The notes beneath the pieces are model-generated. The model was given only the letters and a program-made list of their open reading frames with translations, did not search any database and was not told the origin of the DNA. Shown in pieces: positions 1-52,355 of a DNA stretch of 52,355 nt. Made by a program: the position numbers and the translations under genes. Origin of the DNA: Deltaproteobacteria bacterium (GTDB taxonomy: Bacteria > Myxococcota > Kuafuiibacteriia > Kuafuiibacteriales > Kuafuiibacteriaceae); NCBI GenBank assembly GCA_040218735.1, contig JAVJQW010000002.1:1-52355 (forward strand), read 5' to 3'. Every line of letters starts with the position of its first letter. Position 1 is the first letter of the stretch.

Positions 1-623
1 GCGCCCGCCGGCGCATCCTCGGCGGGTTTCGACCGCGGACGACTCGTCTTTCCGTTCTTCCTGCTCTCCAGCTTCTTCACGTACAGCGCGAGCGCCGCTT
101 CGAAGATCTCTCCGATGTCCGTCCCAGGCGGGGTGAGCTCCTTGGCTCGATCCAAGAGCGCCTTCGCTTCGGCGCTCCCGTCGAATCGAAAAGCGAACGT
201 GTCGGGCGTCGCCGCCTCGACACGGTCTTCGCAGCTCTTCGCGCCGGGGAACTCGGTCGCGATCAGCATTTCGACCTCGGCCTTGGACTTGTTCCGCGCC
301 TGCTCGACGAGGCTGTGGGCGTTGTCGTCGTTCATGAACTTCGAGAGCTTCGCGATGCCGGTCATGTGCAGCTCCCCGGTCGCGAGCAGCTCGAACAGCT
401 CGGGCACCCGCCGCGCGGCGCGCACCACGGCGACGCGCCGGCACGCCTGGTCCTCGGTCAGCCCGAGCCCCTCGACGCAGAACCGAAACAGCGAGCTAAA
501 GCCCCGCTCGACGTAGAGCTTGCGCCGCTCGATCTCCGCCATGAACCGGAGCGCCTGCACACCGCTCTTCAGCTCCGCCTGAAGCGCTTCGCGAAGTCCG
601 CTCAGGAGATCGTTCTGGGTCAT
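1..623 (-). CDS. DUF222-like / HNH-endonuclease family repeat-element protein, N-terminal part (3' end runs off window)
   Basis: Manual translation from ATG at 623: MTQNDLLSGLREALQAELKSGVQALRFMAEIERRKLYVERGFSSLFRFCVEGLGLTEDQACRRVAVVRAARRVPELFELLATGELHMTGIAKL...KSKAEVEMLIA; open to position 1. The 'AEIERRKLY...GFSSLFxFC...LGLTE..A.RR' motif matches the multicopy HNH proteins of Myxococcota/Bdellovibrionota. The HNH domain itself lies outside the window. Confidence 0.8.
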   Translation of the reverse strand, partial: MTQNDLLSGLREALQAELKSGVQALRFMAEIERRKLYVERGFSSLFRFCVEGLGLTEDQACRRVAVVRAARRVPELFELLATGELHMTGIAKLSKFMNDDNAHSLVEQARNKSKAEVEMLIATEFPGAKSCEDRVEAATPDTFAFRFDGSAEAKALLDRAKELTPPGTDIGEIFEAALALYVKKLESRKNGKTSRPRSKPAEDAPAG

Positions 624-689
624 GCAAGATAGGTTGCAAGCGTTCGGGCTCATGTATCGACGGTATCATCGAGCCCTCGAAACGCGATT
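614..689. repeat. 76-bp direct repeat, copy 1 (first codons and upstream region of the HNH-type gene)
   Basis: tctgggtcatgcaagataggttgcaagcgttcgggctcatgtatcgacggtatcatcgagccctcgaaacgcgatt aligns ungapped to 52276-52351 with 5 mismatches. Confidence 0.95.
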
Positions 690-1313
690 GAGCAGGCCTC
701 GAGGACGAGCCTCTGAGATCTGCGAGGACGCACGATACAGACCGTCAGCGTCCGAAGACGAGTCCAAGCTCGAAAACTTCGAAACGGACTGCGTTCGTCG
801 AGGAGATGGCCCGGACAGGGCCTTTGATTCCGTCAACCCCCAAGAGAGAAAAAGAAACCGCTTCTGCAACTCAACTTGCGCGACCGGCCATCCCCCTTGA
901 CCAGCCGGCGAATCTCGCCGGTTCATCGCAGCCCTCGACCGCCGCCGGCGCAATTAACCGACGCTCAATCCGGTCGTCTTGTGAACGCGTCGAAGGCGGC
1001 GTGGGCGACTCGCGTGCGAGGCCGCGAAGATCCATCTGGCGGATGACCGCGCCGCGAGCGCGACATGGGGAGCATGGCGAGTGCCGCCGACCATCGAGCG
1101 GATCCGACCGCCGTCCTCCTGCCAACATGGAGCGCGGGCCGGCGGGGTACCAGCGTAGGGCGATGGTTCCGGGGTGCGTCGGGCGCGTCATGCCCCGCCT
1201 ACGGCCTTTCCAGGCGAGCAGATCCACTAAGTCAACGGCATTGCGGCTGGTGCCAGCGTTCCGAAGTCCGTTCCGAGTTTTCGCGAGCGCGCTTTGCGTC
1301 TGGAATGCTGGCG

Positions 1314-1757
1314 CTAGGTTCGCATCGCGTTCAGCGTCGCGCGGCGCCGTACCTTGGCGCGCCGCGCGACCTTCGGTGTCACCGGGTGCGCGCGGCAGTG
1401 GATGACGTTGTAGCTACACGTGATCTCCTCGCCCGGCAGGATGTCGCGCACCGCGCGGACGTGCGCGTGCGGTCCGTTCGGGAGGATGACCTCCGTGTTC
1501 GGATCGTCCGAGTGGTTCGTGTAGCGATCGTTGTCGCCCGAGAGCACGAGTAGGCCGAGCTCCGGGAAGTACTCCGAGTACACGTCGAGGAAGCTCACGA
1601 CTGCGGCCGGGAGGCTCGCGAGGTCGCGCTCTTCGATCAGTTTGTCGAGCAGAGGCTCGAACCTCCAAAGCGTCGTTCCGCTTTCGATGTGCTCCTCGGC
1701 GAAGAGGCCGAGTCCGTGGATGGGGCTCTGTTGAACAGAGGTTCTAACGAGTAGCAA
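1314..1757 (-). CDS. SET-domain protein (putative protein-lysine methyltransferase)
   Basis: SPIHGLGLFA, NHSDDPN and RDILPGEEITCSY SET motifs; TTG start with GAGG just upstream. Confidence 0.9.
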   Translation of the reverse strand: MLLVRTSVQQSPIHGLGLFAEEHIESGTTLWRFEPLLDKLIEERDLASLPAAVVSFLDVYSEYFPELGLLVLSGDNDRYTNHSDDPNTEVILPNGPHAHVRAVRDILPGEEITCSYNVIHCRAHPVTPKVARRAKVRRRATLNAMRT

Positions 1758-1856: not shown

Positions 1857-4800
1857 GTGCGCCGAACCCAACTCCTGCCGCTCACCCTCCTGCTCGCCTG
1901 CCTCCCGGAGGAGGAACCGGTCGACCTCCCGCCGCCGCCGCCCGAGCCGGTCCTCGTCACCGCGGGCGGCCACATCGACGCACCGCCCGAACCGGAGCGT
2001 GACCCCGTCGCCGCCCGCGCTCGCCTCGACGCCCTCCGCGCCGCCATCCCGGAACAGACCCCGGCCGCGTTCCTGGAGAGCGCCGAGTCCGCCGCCGGAC
2101 AGCAGCACCACAAGGAAGCGCGCGACGCCTTCCGCGGGCTCTTCCTCCACCACCCCCAGCACGAGTCCGCGCCGAGCGCGTTGGAGCGCGCCACCCGCGC
2201 GTCCTTCCAGCTCGGCGAGCACCAAGCCGGCCTCGACTTCTACGAGGACGGCCTCGAGCTCGTGCGCGGCACCCTCGCCGAAGCGCGCCTCCTCCGAGTC
2301 CTCGGCGCCCTCTACCTGGAGGTCCCGCACTGGGGCACCGAGAAGGCCGGCGAATTCCACCGCGCGCGCTACGAGCAGGGCACCTACCGCTACACCTACC
2401 GGCGCGATCGGCGCACCGCGGTTCGCCGCCTGGAGGCCGCGCGCGCCGCCTTCACGAAGCTCGGCGCCACGACGGAGCTCTACGACACGCAGCTCGATCT
2501 CATCCTCGCGCTCGGACGTTTCACTCCCTACGACAGCGGCTGGGGTTACTGGTACGACGCGTGGGACGACGGGGTCGACGACGACCGCGTCGACGAACAC
2601 GGCGCCGACGAACGCGCCGGGCACTACGGGCGCTCGATCCTCTTCCGCAGCGAGCCGCGCGGCGTCCCGGTCGACGCCCAAGGTCGAGTCGTCTTCACGG
2701 AGCGCCCCGAGGTCTACGCCGCCGAGCTCGACACCACCGCGAAGATCAAGTTCCTCGCGCACGAGCTCTCTAGGATCCAAGGCGCCGAAACCCACGCCGC
2801 CGTCGCGCTCTACCACCAGGCGCTCATGTTCGAATCACGCCACGGCGCGAACCGGCTGCTGCGTCTCAGCGGTTGGTGGTGGAACGGCCGCACGCCCTAC
2901 AAGGCGACGATCGACGAGACTCCGCTCTATGAGCTCGACGACGACCAGGTGCTCGGCCTGATCGCCACGCACATCGGGCGCTACCGCGTGCCGAAGAACG
3001 AGTCGACGCTCGCGCTCCTCGACCGCGTCCTGTCCGAGTACGGCGAGGAAGACATCGTGCAAGACGCGCTCATCGCGCGCGCGACCTTCTTCCAGTCGCG
3101 ACAGCAGTACGACCGCGCGGCCGACGCCTACGACCACTACCTGGAGCGGTTCCCGAAGGGGCGCCTCGTGGGCAGCGCGCGGAGCGGGCGCGCGCTCCTC
3201 GCGCGCACGGAGGCCGTCGTGGTCGGGACCAGCGTGCAGCCCGCGGGCTCCACGGCGAACGTCGAGGTCTCGCACCGCAACGTCACCACGCTCTACGGAC
3301 GCGCCGAGCTCTACGATCCCCGCGCGCTGCTCGAAGCGTTCGAGTCGGCGTGGCGGGGCGACGCCGAGCCCGGCTTCTACCCCTCGAACCTCGCCTACTA
3401 CCTGTACGCCAACCAGGGTCGCGTCGAGCGCGCGCGGCGCGGCGAGCCGGAGGACTTCGTCGCCACGGTGAAGGACGACGGGACGCGGCGCTTCGCGAAG
3501 TCGAACGTGGACGTGCCGATCGAGGACGCCGGGTTCTGGGTCGTGCGGTTCTTCGCGGACGAGGCGCGGACGCAGCAGCTCGGACGCGGCGTGGTCATGC
3601 TGACCGACACGGCGATCGTCGAGAAGGGGACGCCGAAGGGGCCGATCGCCTGGGTCGTCGACGCACGCACCGGGCAGCCGATCGAGGGTGCGAAGGTGCG
3701 CGTCTTCGACTTCTGGCGTGACTACAAAGAAGGCAAGTCACACCGTCGCTACCTCGAGAGCACCGCGACGACGAACGCCGATGGCATCGCGCGGGTGAAG
3801 CGGCGCAACTACCAGCGTGTGCTCTCCGTCGAGCACGGGGATCGCTTCGCCTTCACGGGCGACGGCTTCTACTACAGCTACGCGCCGTCGAGCTTCGGGA
3901 GCGCGAACGTCGGGCTCGTCTACACGGATCGACCCGTCTACCGGCCCGAGAACGAGGTGCACCTCATGGCCTGGGCGCGCCACCGTCGAAACGGCGAGTT
4001 CCTCCCTGCGAAGGACGTGCGGTCGATCCAGATCAACGTCTACGACCCGAAGGGCGCGCAGGTCTTCACCGGTAAGGCGAAGGCGGACGGCGGCGGCGCA
4101 GAGTTCTCCTATCCGATCCCCGAGGACGCCGCGCTCGGCCTATACCGCGTCAACGTCTACGCGGACGGTGCGTGGGTGCAGGGCCAGGGCCAGTTCCGCG
4201 TCGAGGAGTACAAGGCGCCCGAGATCGAGGTATCGGTGTCCGTCGGCGACGGTCCGGCGCGGCTCGGGACGAAGATCCCCGTCCGCATCGAGGCGAGTTA
4301 CCTCTTCGGCGGCCCGGCCGCGGGCGCGAAGGTGCACTACAAGATCCACCGCGCGGATCACGACCACCGCTACGTCGCGCCCGGGCCGTGGGACTGGCTC
4401 TACGGTCCGGGGTACGGACGTTGCTACTACGCGTACCGCTGGTTCGATTGGTGGGGCGCGTGGGGCCCGCGACCGTGGGTCTGGTACCCGTGGTGGGGGC
4501 CGGCGCCGGAGCCCAAGAAGGAGCTGGTGCTCGAAGGCCGCGGGACGCTCGGGGCCGACGGCACGATCGCGGTGTCGATCGACACGACGCGCGCGAAGGC
4601 GCTCTACGGCGAGAAGGATCAGCGCTTCACCGTCGAGGCCGAGGTGACCGATTCGACGCGTCGGACGATCGTCGGCGCGGGCGCGATCGTCGCGACGCGG
4701 CACGCGTTCTTCGTGTCGATGGCGACGGACCGTGGCTACTACCGCCCTGGCGAGACGATGACGCTCGAGGCCAGCGCGCTCAGGTTCGATGACTCACCGA

Positions 4801-7800
4801 TCGTCGACCGCGCGGGGCGTTTCGAGATCAGCCGCATCCGTTTCACGGGGGGCAACGGGGACTCGGTCGTCGAGAGGCCCGTGTTCTCTTCGCGCGCGAC
4901 GACCGACGAGCGCGGGATGGCGCGGGTGAAGTGGGACGTCGCCGAGCCCGGGCAGTATCGACTCACGTTCACGGCGGAGGACGAGGACGGTGAAGAGGTG
5001 CTCGGGAGCGCCGTGGTCTGGGTCTACGGCGCGCGCCTCGATGCGTCCGAAGCGCGCTTCAACCACCTGGAGATCATCACGGACAAACGTACCTACGCGG
5101 TGGGTGAGACGGCGCGGCTGTTGATCGCTTCGAACGTCGAGGGCGCCAAGATCCTCTTCTCCGACTTCGTGGATGGCGGCGCGCTGGAGAAGCCGCGGGT
5201 GCTCGCGTTGAAGGGGAAGACGACGGTGGTCGAGGTCCCGATCACGGAGCGTCACGTGCCGAACTTCTTCGTCGAGGCGTTGGTGGTCGGTGAGGGGCGG
5301 TTCTCCGAGGAGGTCCGCGAGATCATCGTCCCGCCGCCTGCGGCGAGCCTCGACATCGAGCTGAAGCCGGCGGCGAGCGAGGCGAGGGCGGGGGCGCCGT
5401 CGTCGCTGGAGATCGTCACACGCGGCGCGGACGGTGCGCCGGTGTCGGCGCACGTCGCGGTGTCGGTGTTCGATCGTTCCGTGCTCTACATCCAGCCCGA
5501 GCTCACGCCGGATCCGCGCGTGGTCTTCTGGGGGCAGAAGCGTCACCACCGTGCGTCGTCGGCCAACAGCCTCGCGGTGCGATTGGGGCCGTTCGAGGCG
5601 CCGTCGAGCCCCGCGCAGCAGGCGACCTGGGCGTTGAACGCAGCGCAGCGGAGCGCGGAGCGGCTGGGCGCGAAGGCCGCGACCGCCAAGCTCGACGTCG
5701 CCGACGAGAAGGCGGAGGAAGAGCGACCGCGCGGCGAGGCGGAGGCCTTCGGCGACAAGGACGCGAACAAGGAGCTCGGGCGACGCGAAGGGAAGAAGCG
5801 ACAATTCGCGGCGAACGAGGACACGCCCAGCGACGACGCGGTCGGCGCGGAGGGCGCCGACGGAACGACCGCCGAGCCTCGCGTCCGGAAGAACTTCGCC
5901 GACACGGCGGCGTGGCGCGTCGTGAAGACCGGCGCGGACGGGCGCGCGAAGATCGACTGGACGTTCCCGGACAACCTCACGACGTGGCGGGTCAAGGCGA
6001 TCGGCGCGACGGATGCGACGCGCGTCGGCCAGGCGTCGACCTCGATCGTCACGACCAAGAAGCTCCTCGTCCAGCTACAGGCGCCGCGGTTCTTCCGCGA
6101 GCGCGACGAGGTGTTGATCACCGGCGTCGTACACAACCGCCTCCCCGAAGCGCACGACGTGAAGGTGAAGCTCGACGTCACCGAGCAATACCTGTTGCTG
6201 CAGGGCCCGGCCGAGACGGTCGTCGAGGTGCCGGCCGGTGAGCACCGTCGTGTCGACTTCCGCGTGAAGGTGCAGGGCGAAGGTCGCGCACGCGTTCGGG
6301 TGTCGGCGTTGACCGGCGTCGAGTCCGACGCGAAGGAGCTCGACTTCCCGGTGCTCGTGCACGGGTTCGAGAAGACGGACGCGGCGGTCGGCAGCATCCC
6401 GTTCGGCACGGGGACCGAGGAGCGCTCGGTCGTCGTGCGGGTGCCCGAGGACCGCCGCCCCGAACAGACCGAGCTCGTCATCCGCGCGGCGCCCTCGCTC
6501 GCGACCGCGATGATCGACGCGCTGCCGTTCCTGCTCGACTACCCGTACGGGTGCACCGAGCAGACGATGAGCCGCTTCGTCCCGGCGGTGGTCACCAAGA
6601 AGACGCTCCAGCAGACCGGCGGCGTCGCGCTGCAGGAGCTCGCGAAGATCCGCGCGAGCCTCGACCCGCAGAAGCTCGACCCGGACGGGGAGGGTTACGA
6701 CGCGCGGCGCGCGCACGAGTACGCGCACCTGTTCGCCAACCCCGTCTACAGCGACGCGAAGATGAACGACATCATCCGCGCTGGCCTCGCGCGAATCGCG
6801 AAGTTGCAGCGGCCGGACGGCGGCTGGGGTTGGTGGGGCGGCGACCACAGCTCGGTCTACACGACGGCGTACGTGCTGTGGGGCCTCGCCGAGGCGCGCG
6901 ACGCGGACACGGCGATCGACGCGTCGATGCTCGCACGCGGTGTGGCGGCGCTCGTTCGGCTGACGCCGGAGCACATCCGTCGCTACGAGACAAAGGGCTG
7001 GGTCTCGGACACCGACGCCTTCCTCGCGTATGTGCTCGCCCGTCACGGTCGGCCGAACCGCGAGCTGACGGGGTTGCTCTACGAACGTCGCGGTCAGCTG
7101 AGTGTCTACGGCAAGAGCCTGCTCGCGCTCGCGCTGTGGCGCGCGGGCGAGAAGGACGACGCGCGGGTGGTGCTCCGCAACGCAGCGCAGTTCATGAAGG
7201 AAGACCCGGAGAATCAGACGGCGTGGCTCGACACGCCGCGCGGCGGGTGGTGGTACTGGTGGAACAACGACATCGAGTCGAACGCGACGTACCTGCGCGC
7301 GCTCGTCACGATTCGGCCGCACGATCCGAGCGCGCCCAAGATCGTGAAGTGGCTGCTCGCCAACCGGCAGAACGGCTACTACTGGCGGTCGACGCGCGAT
7401 ACGGCGATCACCATCTCCTCGTTCGGGCACTACCTACGCGCGCGGCGGGTGAGCGACACGGACTACGACCTCGAGATCCTCGTGGACGGCGAGGTCGCGA
7501 AGACGGTGCACATCGACCACACCAACCTGCTCACCTTCGACGGCGAGGTGCGCCTGCGCGGCGACGCGCTGAGCTCGGGTGAGCACACGATCACGTTCCG
7601 CAGGAAGGGCAAAGGCGCGGTCTACTTCAACACGTACCTCACCTACTTCACGACGGAGGAGGACGCGCCGCCGTCCGGCTTGGAGATCCGCGTGGCGCGT
7701 CGCTACTTCCTCCTCGAACGCGACGATCGCGAGCACACCGTGCACGACGACCAGGGGGGGAAGCAGGCGATGCGGGAAGTCGCGTACCGCAAGGTGCCGC

Positions 7801-8159
7801 TCGAGACCGGGGCGCGCGTCGACAGCGGGGATCTCATCCTCGTCGAGCTCGAGCTCGAATCGAAGAACGACTACACGTTCCTCGCGTTCGAGGATCCGAA
7901 GCCGGCCGGGATGGAGCCGGTCGCGCTCCGAAGCGGGACGGTCTACGGCGAAGCCGTGACCAACATGGAACTCAGGGATGACCGCGTCGTGTTCTTTTTG
8001 AGACACCTTCAGCAGGGCAGGTTGCGCATCGACTATCGCCTACGTGCCGAGATTCCCGGTGAGTTCCACGCGATGCCCACCCGTGGGTTCGCGATGTACG
8101 CGCCCGAGCTACGAGCGACTTCTTCTGAGATGCGAATCGGGGTCGATGGATCAAAGTGA
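1857..8159 (+). CDS. Bacterial alpha-2-macroglobulin family lipoprotein (TPR-like N-terminus, MG domains, thioester domain)
   Basis: Lipobox LLAC; YTDRPVYRP (MG2), F..EEYK.P, VRKNFADTAAW, FPDNLTTW, thioester motif YPYGCTEQ, C-terminal YRLRAEIPGEF...MYAPE. Confidence 0.95.
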   Translation: MRRTQLLPLTLLLACLPEEEPVDLPPPPPEPVLVTAGGHIDAPPEPERDPVAARARLDALRAAIPEQTPAAFLESAESAAGQQHHKEARDAFRGLFLHHPQHESAPSALERATRASFQLGEHQAGLDFYEDGLELVRGTLAEARLLRVLGALYLEVPHWGTEKAGEFHRARYEQGTYRYTYRRDRRTAVRRLEAARAAFTKLGATTELYDTQLDLILALGRFTPYDSGWGYWYDAWDDGVDDDRVDEHGADERAGHYGRSILFRSEPRGVPVDAQGRVVFTERPEVYAAELDTTAKIKFLAHELSRIQGAETHAAVALYHQALMFESRHGANRLLRLSGWWWNGRTPYKATIDETPLYELDDDQVLGLIATHIGRYRVPKNESTLALLDRVLSEYGEEDIVQDALIARATFFQSRQQYDRAADAYDHYLERFPKGRLVGSARSGRALLARTEAVVVGTSVQPAGSTANVEVSHRNVTTLYGRAELYDPRALLEAFESAWRGDAEPGFYPSNLAYYLYANQGRVERARRGEPEDFVATVKDDGTRRFAKSNVDVPIEDAGFWVVRFFADEARTQQLGRGVVMLTDTAIVEKGTPKGPIAWVVDARTGQPIEGAKVRVFDFWRDYKEGKSHRRYLESTATTNADGIARVKRRNYQRVLSVEHGDRFAFTGDGFYYSYAPSSFGSANVGLVYTDRPVYRPENEVHLMAWARHRRNGEFLPAKDVRSIQINVYDPKGAQVFTGKAKADGGGAEFSYPIPEDAALGLYRVNVYADGAWVQGQGQFRVEEYKAPEIEVSVSVGDGPARLGTKIPVRIEASYLFGGPAAGAKVHYKIHRADHDHRYVAPGPWDWLYGPGYGRCYYAYRWFDWWGAWGPRPWVWYPWWGPAPEPKKELVLEGRGTLGADGTIAVSIDTTRAKALYGEKDQRFTVEAEVTDSTRRTIVGAGAIVATRHAFFVSMATDRGYYRPGETMTLEASALRFDDSPIVDRAGRFEISRIRFTGGNGDSVVERPVFSSRATTDERGMARVKWDVAEPGQYRLTFTAEDEDGEEVLGSAVVWVYGARLDASEARFNHLEIITDKRTYAVGETARLLIASNVEGAKILFSDFVDGGALEKPRVLALKGKTTVVEVPITERHVPNFFVEALVVGEGRFSEEVREIIVPPPAASLDIELKPAASEARAGAPSSLEIVTRGADGAPVSAHVAVSVFDRSVLYIQPELTPDPRVVFWGQKRHHRASSANSLAVRLGPFEAPSSPAQQATWALNAAQRSAERLGAKAATAKLDVADEKAEEERPRGEAEAFGDKDANKELGRREGKKRQFAANEDTPSDDAVGAEGADGTTAEPRVRKNFADTAAWRVVKTGADGRAKIDWTFPDNLTTWRVKAIGATDATRVGQASTSIVTTKKLLVQLQAPRFFRERDEVLITGVVHNRLPEAHDVKVKLDVTEQYLLLQGPAETVVEVPAGEHRRVDFRVKVQGEGRARVRVSALTGVESDAKELDFPVLVHGFEKTDAAVGSIPFGTGTEERSVVVRVPEDRRPEQTELVIRAAPSLATAMIDALPFLLDYPYGCTEQTMSRFVPAVVTKKTLQQTGGVALQELAKIRASLDPQKLDPDGEGYDARRAHEYAHLFANPVYSDAKMNDIIRAGLARIAKLQRPDGGWGWWGGDHSSVYTTAYVLWGLAEARDADTAIDASMLARGVAALVRLTPEHIRRYETKGWVSDTDAFLAYVLARHGRPNRELTGLLYERRGQLSVYGKSLLALALWRAGEKDDARVVLRNAAQFMKEDPENQTAWLDTPRGGWWYWWNNDIESNATYLRALVTIRPHDPSAPKIVKWLLANRQNGYYWRSTRDTAITISSFGHYLRARRVSDTDYDLEILVDGEVAKTVHIDHTNLLTFDGEVRLRGDALSSGEHTITFRRKGKGAVYFNTYLTYFTTEEDAPPSGLEIRVARRYFLLERDDREHTVHDDQGGKQAMREVAYRKVPLETGARVDSGDLILVELELESKNDYTFLAFEDPKPAGMEPVALRSGTVYGEAVTNMELRDDRVVFFLRHLQQGRLRIDYRLRAEIPGEFHAMPTRGFAMYAPELRATSSEMRIGVDGSK

Positions 8160-50959: not shown

Positions 50960-51877
50960 GTGCTGCTGCTTCTCCTCGCCGCGAACCTGGGATTCTCCGC
51001 TGGCGTCGAGCCGCTCGACATCGGCGGTCCGGCCGCGGAGCACTCCGCGTCGTCGTGCGGTTCGTGTCACGAGGCGGAGCTCGCGGAGTGGTCGAAGAGT
51101 CGTCACCGGCGCTCGGTCACCAACCGAATCTTCGTCGCGGGGTACGCCGTGGAGTCCGAGGCGCGGTGCATACGCTGTCACGCACCGCTCCCCGAGCAGG
51201 GCGCGGAGGTCGCGCGCGTCCGCCACGACCTCACGGCGCTCCCGACCAAGGCGCTCGCGCGGGAGGGCGTCACCTGCGCCACGTGCCACGTGCGCGACGG
51301 CGAAGCGCACGGCAACGACGCGCTGCAGTCCGACGCGCTGTGCGGCTCGTGCCACGAGTTCACGTTCCACGAGAAGCAGCGCGGGCGCCTCGTGCTCACG
51401 GATCTCCCGATACAGTCGACGTTCTCCGAGTGGCGCAGCTACGCCGCGGCAGGCGGCGAGGGGTCGTGCATTTCCTGCCACATGAAGAACGGCCACGACA
51501 TCCGCGGTGCGCACGACGTCTCGACGTTGCGCGCGGCGCTCCGGATCACCCAGCACCACGACGCGCTCGTGTTCGAGAGCGTGGGGGTCGGGCACGACTT
51601 CCCGACCGGCGACGTGTTCCGCCACGTCACGGTGGAGCTGTCCGACGGGCGCGAGTGGCGCGAGGTCGCGCGGTTCGGTCGGCGGTACGCGCCCGCGCCG
51701 AATGGCGACGGTGGCTATTCGATGGTGCTGGAAGCGAACACCGCGCTTCGTGTCGGTGAGCCGCGGGTCGTCCCGTTTGCGGCGACGGACCAGGCCTACC
51801 GCGTTCGGTACCGGTACAACCGCGAGGGAACGGAGCGCGTCGACATCGCGGTGGCTAGGCTGAGGCCGGTCGGGTAG
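50960..51877 (+). CDS. Multiheme cytochrome c (5 CxxCH, c554-like)
   Basis: CGSCH, CIRCH, CATCH, CGSCH, CISCH; W..S.H and GH.FPTG motifs. Confidence 0.9.
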   Translation: MLLLLLAANLGFSAGVEPLDIGGPAAEHSASSCGSCHEAELAEWSKSRHRRSVTNRIFVAGYAVESEARCIRCHAPLPEQGAEVARVRHDLTALPTKALAREGVTCATCHVRDGEAHGNDALQSDALCGSCHEFTFHEKQRGRLVLTDLPIQSTFSEWRSYAAAGGEGSCISCHMKNGHDIRGAHDVSTLRAALRITQHHDALVFESVGVGHDFPTGDVFRHVTVELSDGREWREVARFGRRYAPAPNGDGGYSMVLEANTALRVGEPRVVPFAATDQAYRVRYRYNREGTERVDIAVARLRPVG

Positions 51878-51984
51878 CGACCGGTCCGAAGACCGTGCCA
51901 AGCGCGGGCCGCGAAGCGGACCGTGCGTCATGGCCTCTAGGCTCAATGCCGTTCACTTCGCAGACGGGCCTGACTCGACCCCCA

Positions 51985-52285
51985 TCAGGCGGCGAGGGGC
52001 GCCTCGACGGAAGGCAGCGCGCCGGCGACGCGGAGCGACTCGTCCCACGTGCGCCGTTTCGCCGGGCTGGTGAGGGAGGGGGTCCGCGGACCGCAGTGCT
52101 CCGAAGGAGGGCCGCGCTCTCGAAACATCGGCTGGTATCGCTCTCACGAACTGCCCTCCGCACGTGCCGGTGGCGCCGGATGCGTTTCAGGCCGAGTAGG
52201 CTCCGGAATCGAGCCTGGCCTGGTCCGGGTGGAGCGGCGCTCGTGAACCCTCCGATCGATGAGGGCGTGACCCGCTCTGGGTCAT
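51985..52285 (-). pseudogene. Probable internally deleted, decayed copy of the left-end HNH-type gene
   Basis: Same ATG ACC CAG start context as 623; that frame stops after about 32 codons; another frame reads HVRRAVRESDTSRCF, like the 'HVRRAVWERD..RC.F' lead-in of HNH domains. Confidence 0.5.
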
Positions 52286-52351
52286 GCAAGACAGGTTGCA
52301 AGCGTTCGGGCTCATGCATCGAAGGTGTCATCGAGCCCTCGCAACGCGATT
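52276..52351. repeat. 76-bp direct repeat, copy 2
   Basis: 71/76 identical to 614-689, same orientation, offset 51,662 bp. Confidence 0.95.
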
Positions 52352-52355
52352 TGGC

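Follow-up and report, generated by a model that had tools for sequence, protein, structure and literature searches.

The stretch of DNA analyzed here (the window, 52,355 nucleotides from a Deltaproteobacteria bacterium) is one entire contig, C5, of the source genome G000, a high-GC assembly of 11.6 Mb in 70 contigs, and both of its ends lie inside copies of one repeat of ~1.8 kb that carries a gene for an HNH-type protein. A sequence-only reading of the window had noticed a minus-strand reading frame running from position 623 off the window start and the recurrence of its first codons, together with the DNA upstream of them (the leader), at 52276-52351. Both observations held: the frame begins with an ATG at the expected place, and window positions 611-689 and 52273-52351 match with 92% identity in the same orientation, the segment 614-689 showing 5 mismatches in 76. 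A 101-nt probe (window 600-700) found 29 places in the 11.6-Mb genome at E ≤ 0.001, so the leader match within the window is far beyond chance. Two copies do bracket the window, as the reading had it, but the repeat is far longer than the segment recognized then, occupying 1-1243 at the left and everything from 51944 at the right. The assembly is 96.5% complete, with breaks occurring at repeats, and 40 of its 140 contig ends are inside the HNH repeat. This explains why both window ends fall in it, as assembly breaks in a multicopy element, and makes the element the biggest single source of fragmentation in this assembly.

The unit, delimited by BLAST of an internal copy, measures 1,799 bp (reference copy C29:143932-145730; second complete copy C33:76221-78009). 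About 60 fragments of it are dispersed over G000, and 15-26 copies could be aligned at every position. Terminal inverted repeats of 22 nt were seen at 23 left and 24 right ends, most commonly in the form CAATGCCGTTCACTTAGCGGAC (as at C4:162292-162313), and the likeness between left and right ends continues, more weakly, for ~10-15 nt beyond them. The 10 nt outside each end form a near-palindrome, GGSYTAGnCC, in which the TAG positions are occupied by T, A and G at 36, 36 and 35 of the 47 ends, respectively. In three copies the two ends lie within a single contig; the flanks are identical at 10 of 10 positions in C29 and at 9 of 10 in C33, and the third copy is taken up below. Two further pairs of flanks, C45-C32 and C53-C58, agree at 10 of 10 positions across contigs, each joining a contig end to a contig start. 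Of the 552 left-by-right pairs, 3 match exactly, compared with 0.08 expected; none of 2000 column shuffles gave as many, and no control pair (left-left or right-right, 529 in all) reaches 9 of 10. The insertion sites lie in dozens of unrelated intergenic flanks. With terminal inverted repeats and a duplication of fixed length, the repeat is an insertion-sequence-like transposable element with 22-nt inverted repeats, a 10-bp duplicated target and a single gene. The shared boundaries and target-site duplications that the sequence-only reading had proposed to look for are thus present, and its description of a dispersed selfish element with no recognizable transposase stands.

Both window copies are intergenic, and both are incomplete (Table 1). 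The left copy, cut by the contig start, reaches window position 1243 or 1244 and equals reference positions 546-1799. Judging from the 10-bp duplications of complete copies, the bases just beyond it would be its half of the duplication, with the partner beyond the contig start. In the right copy, reference positions 2-335 are joined straight to 1156-1238, after which the contig ends; an internal deletion has removed reference positions 336-1155 and with them codons ~5-277 of the gene. This copy is a dead, internally deleted derivative. Its coding region had been taken for diverged, whereas it is mostly deleted, and for that reason the leader looked better conserved than the coding region. The same deletion junction stands at the ends of contigs C57 and C49, whose 126-141 terminal bases are identical to C5 (the last 126 nt of the window are identical to both), an identity that is probably an assembly-graph overlap. 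The flanks of C5 and C57 differ, and so do their left parts, at roughly 1 in 10 positions counted from the alignment, which suggests that the non-autonomous deletion derivative exists in at least two copies. It would be ~980 bp long, if the right half in C49 belongs with it.

Table 1. Features of the two element copies at the ends of the window
Feature	Window positions	Strand	Remarks
Left copy, part of HNH gene	1..623	-	First 207 of 320 codons; ATG 621-623; remainder lost at contig start
Left copy, upstream non-coding region (leader and rest)	624..1221	-	~600 bp; no codon periodicity
Left copy, right terminal inverted repeat	1222..1243	-	22 nt; 3 mismatches to commonest form
Left copy, expected target-duplication site	1244..1253	.	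10 bp beside right inverted repeat; non-canonical, no TAG
Double-hairpin repeat bounded by CTAG	51855..51941	-	~85 nt; adjoins right copy, outside the element; 54 genome matches
Right copy, target-site copy beside left inverted repeat	51934..51943	.	10 bp; contains CTAG
Right copy, left terminal inverted repeat	51944..51965	+	2 mismatches
Right copy, non-coding stretch 3' of gene	51966..52143	-	Matches reference positions ~30-208
Right copy, gene remnant	52144..52272	-	Stop and last ~43 codons; translation ends ...ARAEGSS* as in intact copies
Right copy, deletion junction (52272/52273), first four codons (ATG 52283-52285) out of frame, 70 nt of leader	52273..52355	-	

The right copy's flank at 51934-51943 has 12 nucleotides identical to C6:777-788, which flanks a right end at the beginning of contig C6. 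We rejected this as a target duplication, the two element halves differing by 6 mismatches in 80 nt; the halves cannot be one copy, as the deletion is in one of them only, and the flank doubles as a junction of the ~85-nt repeat. The ~85-nt repeat has CTAG on both sides, and 44 of the 54 matches extend over 70 nt or more. Outside 7 of the 47 HNH element ends it is found at a distance of no more than 110 nt, and in contigs C38 and C70 it takes the place of the first ~24 nt of the element. Among the neighboring genes, judged by eye from their translations, 1314-1757 (minus strand) is SET-domain-like, 1857-8159 (plus strand) encodes an alpha-2-macroglobulin-like protein of 2100 residues, and the product of 51000-51877 (plus strand) has several Cys-x-x-Cys-His motifs.

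The gene of the element has 320 codons and the same stop in nearly all copies. Variation among the copies is 3-periodic solely at reference positions 209-1168, where diversity is 0.169 at wobble sites versus 0.053 and 0.058 in the other two phases, and dN/dS averages 0.25 over the 10 pairs of five complete copies; the HNH gene is under purifying selection. Variants shared between copies occupy 0.45 of wobble sites versus 0.13-0.15 of other sites, and variants specific to one copy (singletons) 0.27 versus 0.15. The stronger constraint on the shared variants is the pattern expected if the protein matters for propagation and the copies partly decay after insertion.

In Pfam at E ≤ 1, the full-length protein (P0001, 320 residues) had no match, PF02720 (DUF222) and PF01844 included, and neither had the 207-residue fragment in the window. 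No transposase family was matched by P0001 in Pfam or NCBIfam, and the latter gave a weak match to the HNH part of IscB (NF040563; E 0.002, 17.3 bits against a 175-bit cut-off). Sequence searches yielded 130 relatives, those with names being HNH endonucleases or McrA-like proteins, and a sequence search of the PDB returned nothing meaningful. Of 37 aligned homologues, 27 match PF01844, 15 match HNH_5 and 4 match DUF222, weakly (best E 1.7e-4). Residues Cys-227, Cys-237, His-247, Cys-266, His-269 and Asn-270 are invariant in all 37, and the HNH domain has its catalytic and zinc residues intact. The HNH domain sought past the left edge of the window is present in full-length copies elsewhere in G000, and the assignment to an HNH family stands; the kinship to DUF222 proteins is distant at best. 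Glu replaces the middle Asn of the H-N-H motif (residue ~260, consensus ...NLRLRC...) both in the G000 copies and in their closest relative, P0011; the catalytic His and the last Asn are retained. A profile search at E ≤ 1e-30 gathered 10,997 clusters at 50% identity, and one Atlas cluster of the family is 23% DUF222.

An AlphaFold model of P0001 (pLDDT 89.1) gave nothing at E ≤ 1e-3 in a Foldseek search against the PDB. VIA-align, with Z values that are middling, matched residues ~19-126 to ParB/KorB/Spo0J DNA-binding domains (Z 7.0-5.9), residues ~143-192 to ribbon-helix-helix (RHH) proteins (Z 4.5-5.2) and residues ~203-282 to HNH nucleases including GVE2, McrA, IscB and Cap5 (Z 6.5-6.0); neither the RNase-H-like (DDE) fold nor the RuvC fold was among its structure matches. 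Modeled as a homodimer, the protein scored 0.69 against 0.00 for the best of three controls; among solved proteins, 20 of 30 one-chain pairs and 1 of 23 single chains attained that mark. The runs agree in at least 93% of contacts, the pLDDT of the partner is at least 75, and the model is symmetric, with the N-terminal helix and the strand and helices of the RHH module forming the interface. The score may reflect likeness to solved RHH dimers. The protein is thus modeled as a symmetric dimer with a ParB-type helix-turn-helix (HTH), an RHH-like dimer module and a C-terminal HNH nuclease.

Upstream of the gene, over ~600-630 bp, diversity is 0.15-0.16 in all three phases, the neutral level (0.159 versus 0.169 at wobble sites); several copies have leader deletions of ~90-190 bp, and clear conservation is confined to about 20 nt around the ATG. 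No special conservation marks the leader, which changes at the rate of synonymous sites. A second reading frame in this region was ruled out by the lack of codon periodicity, the long frames being the usual high-GC artefacts, and the leader has no promoter-like site and terminator-like sites at chance level. An Rfam search of a complete copy at E ≤ 1 returned one unrelated sRNA match (19 bits against a 70-bit cut-off), and the leader fold was not significant (z -1.1). The proposal of the sequence-only reading that the upstream segment is conserved as a cis-acting end or an RNA must therefore be given up; the real cis-acting ends are the 22-nt inverted repeats, about 600 bp farther out.

These results bear on the idea that the leader encodes a guide or structural RNA working with the HNH protein, as in IscB and its omega-RNA. 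Both systems are multicopy and transposase-free, with a single gene for an HNH-containing nuclease and a long 5' non-coding region, and the HNH fold modeled here superposes on IscB structures 9nvu and 9liq (Z 6.3 and 5.4). The ~600-nt non-coding region is kept in G000 and in the elements of a relative from a different family, G137, where the first ~340 nt vary less than wobble sites, and the weak NCBIfam match would fit as well. Against this, the G000 leader changes at the neutral rate and is partly deleted in several copies, the Rfam search gave nothing above threshold (no omega or HEARO RNA) and the fold nothing significant, and the protein has neither a RuvC domain nor a match to the full-length IscB profile. 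Moreover, elements of the IS200/605 type have neither inverted repeats nor target duplications, whereas the G000 element has both. We hold a leader RNA to be highly improbable.

We looked for the same organization elsewhere in the phylum. At the DNA level, nothing outside G000 matches the element but a 75%-identical piece from the same genus. Of 151 genomes in the phylum, 21 have the HNH protein family in multiple copies; the plan of gene plus ends recurs with different ends in two distant lineages. In G137, the inverted repeats are ~17 nt long and of different sequence in five of five two-ended elements (2.0-2.1 kb, 88-96% identical), each of which is flanked by a 10-11-nt direct duplication that is GGGC...GCCC-like, with three target words seen; a single 3-periodic gene lies behind the leader. 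In the closed genome G133, a 14-nt inverted repeat has 38 matches versus 0 for a control pattern, and all 12 of its plus/minus pairs, 1.64-1.86 kb apart, enclose an HNH element, three of them internally deleted. This closed genome thus shows no element with the same ends and another gene. Deletion derivatives retain both ends in G000 and in G133. The 1.9 kb HNH element of G133 (L042, L059 and L066-L075) always lies inside same-strand (CGACCS)n-type tracts of variable length on both sides; either this hexanucleotide microsatellite is the target or the tracts belong to the element ends. In G003, six copies (L038, L057 and L076-L079) are 98-99% identical, which implies recent spread in a relative. 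The left end adjoins YTAG in five of these six, and some of them have common sequence to their right, which may be another insertion sequence. The inverted repeat of the G000 element itself holds YTAG 12 nt from its tip, resembling the target center, and the ends in G000, G133/G137 and G003, otherwise different, have a CGT(T)CAC-like core in common. The core and the internal YTAG may be a recognition motif of the HTH, or may be chance.

We propose that the G000 element is an autonomous insertion-sequence-like transposon that would be mobilized by its own HNH nuclease, a reading in which our confidence and our doubt are about equal. The HNH protein would be the mobilizing enzyme: its dimer would bind the inverted repeats, cut at the element tips and open the palindromic target with cuts staggered by 10 bp, and host ligation and fill-in would then create the target duplication. 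End-joining could serve for this step, a Ku gene being present in G000; the gene is consistent with end-joining without being evidence of it.

Several points weigh against this proposal. We know of no HNH (beta-beta-alpha-metal) nuclease that performs transposition, and none turned up in literature searches; HNH enzymes hydrolyze DNA and have no known strand-transfer activity, so joining must fall to host repair, a step that is unproven. One of the three two-ended copies, that in C18, has no duplication; this copy, which is internally deleted too, may be a recombinant. Among copies, the inverted repeats are conserved no more than neutral sites, with a majority fraction of 0.91 and 0.87 against 0.905 for non-coding DNA. 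No inverted repeat was present in the DNA examined of G003, the closest family-level relative, or of G045, the right ends of the elements being undefined in both. The G000 copies are old, with a median pairwise identity of 0.897 and a best pair of 0.98. Insertion polymorphism, which the sequence-only reading had also asked for, was absent at the one site tested: the C29 site is occupied in four of four metagenomes from four studies, with no empty-site joint, and recent mobility in the G000 species is therefore not demonstrated. Five related genomes were compared at the C29 locus; the contig of G001 breaks off 390 nt short of the site, and right-flank synteny is missing in the others. Summed metagenome contig depth is tens of times as great on the element as on its flanks, a figure that is not a copy number. 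Finally, an assembly that is incomplete and broken at repeats leaves room for an unassembled partner transposase.

Such a partner is the basis of the main rival explanation: the element would be non-autonomous, a cassette that owes its movement in trans to a conventional, unseen transposase which is unlinked, unassembled or has other ends, and the HNH protein would be a passenger or a retention or homing nuclease, in the way that TnpB and IscB are thought to cut empty sites for IS200/605 elements. We consider this possible but unlikely. Elements with DDE transposases, those of the IS4/IS231 group among them, typically combine inverted repeats with a symmetric target duplicated over 10-11 bp. 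Elements of the IS4 family (IS231, IS10 and the MIC231 cassettes) have short inverted repeats, 9-12-bp duplications of symmetric targets and deleted or cargo-carrying derivatives, and the G000 element resembles them in the geometry of its ends and target and in its deletion derivatives; unlike them, it has no DDE transposase, and G000 contains no IS4-type element with the same ends. The few transposase genes of G000 comprise one of the IS1182 family (C57:93-1574, with a broken copy in C16), one of the IS701 family (in C36) and two rve matches, with nothing above cut-off for Transposase_mut, ISL3 or DDE_3. Their presence, the fact that the IS1182-type element also targets CTAG, the incompleteness of the assembly at repeats and the lack of a known strand-transfer activity in HNH enzymes all favor movement in trans.

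Against it, all G000 matches to the inverted repeat that have at most 4 mismatches in 22 belong to ends of the HNH element, and no other element in the 70-contig assembly bears these inverted repeats at 5 mismatches or fewer, so that the resident autonomous element expected of a non-autonomous cassette or miniature inverted-repeat transposable element is missing. Neither the IS1182-family nor the IS701-family gene has the ends of the HNH element; the IS1182-type ends adjoin CTAG directly, their sequence is unlike those ends, and at most 4 bp, not 10, are common to both sides. In closed G133 the 12 inverted-repeat pairs enclose solely the HNH element, the gene keeps company with different ends in two distant lineages, and purifying selection across copies is hard to reconcile with a mere passenger. 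The IS1182-family element itself encodes a transposase of 494 residues that matches NF033551 at E 8.5e-93. Its left-end sequence is also found in a foldback repeat of ~1 kb whose inverted arms are ~400 nt long; the two insert at CTAG, which their ends adjoin directly, occur at C57:1-1731, C16:79948-80836, C64:127059-128032 and ~12-20 other places, and account for about a dozen more contig ends.

The age of the copies and the absence of visible constraint on the inverted repeats would also fit the invasion of an older miniature inverted-repeat element by an HNH homing-endonuclease gene, which would then spread among the copies by cleavage and recombinational repair; the protein does resemble a site-specific nuclease, with DNA-binding domains and an HNH domain. 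We regard this as improbable. A gene-less version of the element was not found, and the short form keeps both ends of the gene, which marks it as a deletion derivative and not an ancestor; in G133, too, inverted-repeat pairs are never closer than 1.64 kb. Free-standing HNH homing endonucleases are alike in joining a sequence-specific DNA-binding module to an HNH domain in a selfish gene, but homing copies a gene by recombination into a single cognate allele and leaves neither inverted repeats nor duplications. Homing genes occupy one conserved host site, an intron or an intein, and the G000 element sits at dozens of intergenic sites.

It is very improbable, in our view, that the copies are an immobile paralogous family, dispersed long ago and maintained by the host, for example as recombination hot spots or for defense. 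The inverted repeats, target duplications, target specificity and deletion derivatives are marks of transposition, PADLOC assigned no defense family to three members of the family, and the near-identical G003 copies point to recent spread in a relative. What speaks for such a family is that copies about 10% diverged are mostly intact, that the C29 site is fixed across the four metagenomes, and that 13E12 repeats are inversion hot spots in Mycobacterium tuberculosis, according to one report (PMC13157036). With many copies, defined ends and an HNH domain in the full-length copies, the mobile repeat of the sequence-only reading survives in most respects.

Set beside an autonomous transposon with an HNH enzyme, no known system offers a complete match. 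A classical insertion sequence would carry a transposase of a known class (DDE, DEDD, HUH, or serine or tyrosine recombinase), and none was found in the element. Casposons reportedly combine inverted repeats with duplications of 14-15 bp, and an HNH gene is frequent in them (PMC4046053). They are 8-20 kb long, with Cas1 and a polymerase, whereas the G000 element is 1.8 kb and has one gene and neither of these. Full-text literature searches returned no description of an HNH-encoded transposon with inverted repeats and duplications, and the exact 'HNH transposase' phrases were unmatched.

The closest parallel is with the REP13E12/DUF222-HNH repeats of mycobacteria and other Actinobacteria, multicopy units of ~1.3-1.8 kb with one reading frame that encodes a helical N-terminal region and a C-terminal HNH domain. 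Two papers present the DUF222/13E12 HNH repeats as multicopy repeats and inversion hot spots (PMC10589994, PMC13157036). The G000 element is likewise dispersed in many copies with HNH catalytic and zinc residues; for both, the mode of spread is unexplained. Its protein differs in matching neither PF02720 nor PF01844. The G000 element differs in having defined ends, with 22-nt inverted repeats and a 10-bp duplication, features for which we met no description in the 13E12 literature covered (which did not include Gordon et al. 1999), as far as the accessible parts of those sources go.

Multicopy DUF222-like HNH genes have reportedly been known since the first M. tuberculosis genome, and to our knowledge their spread has never been explained. 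We tentatively suggest that the element belongs to an unrecognized class of prokaryotic transposon, in which a dimeric ParB-type/RHH HNH nuclease would take the place of a transposase, excising the element at the inverted repeats and cutting a palindromic target with a 10-11-bp stagger, with joining by the host, and that this would explain the spread of the family. Just as tentatively, the family of 10,997 clusters, annotated as 'HNH endonuclease signature motif' or DUF222-like genes, may include, distantly, the mycobacterial 13E12 repeats. The G000 family offers defined ends, a 10-bp palindromic target, one small modeled protein, deletion derivatives and replicate families with other ends, and these features make the spread of HNH repeats testable with a mini-element and one protein. 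Should the HNH protein suffice, it would represent a new catalytic class of transposase, and thousands of genes annotated as HNH endonucleases would need to be re-annotated as genes of mobile elements.

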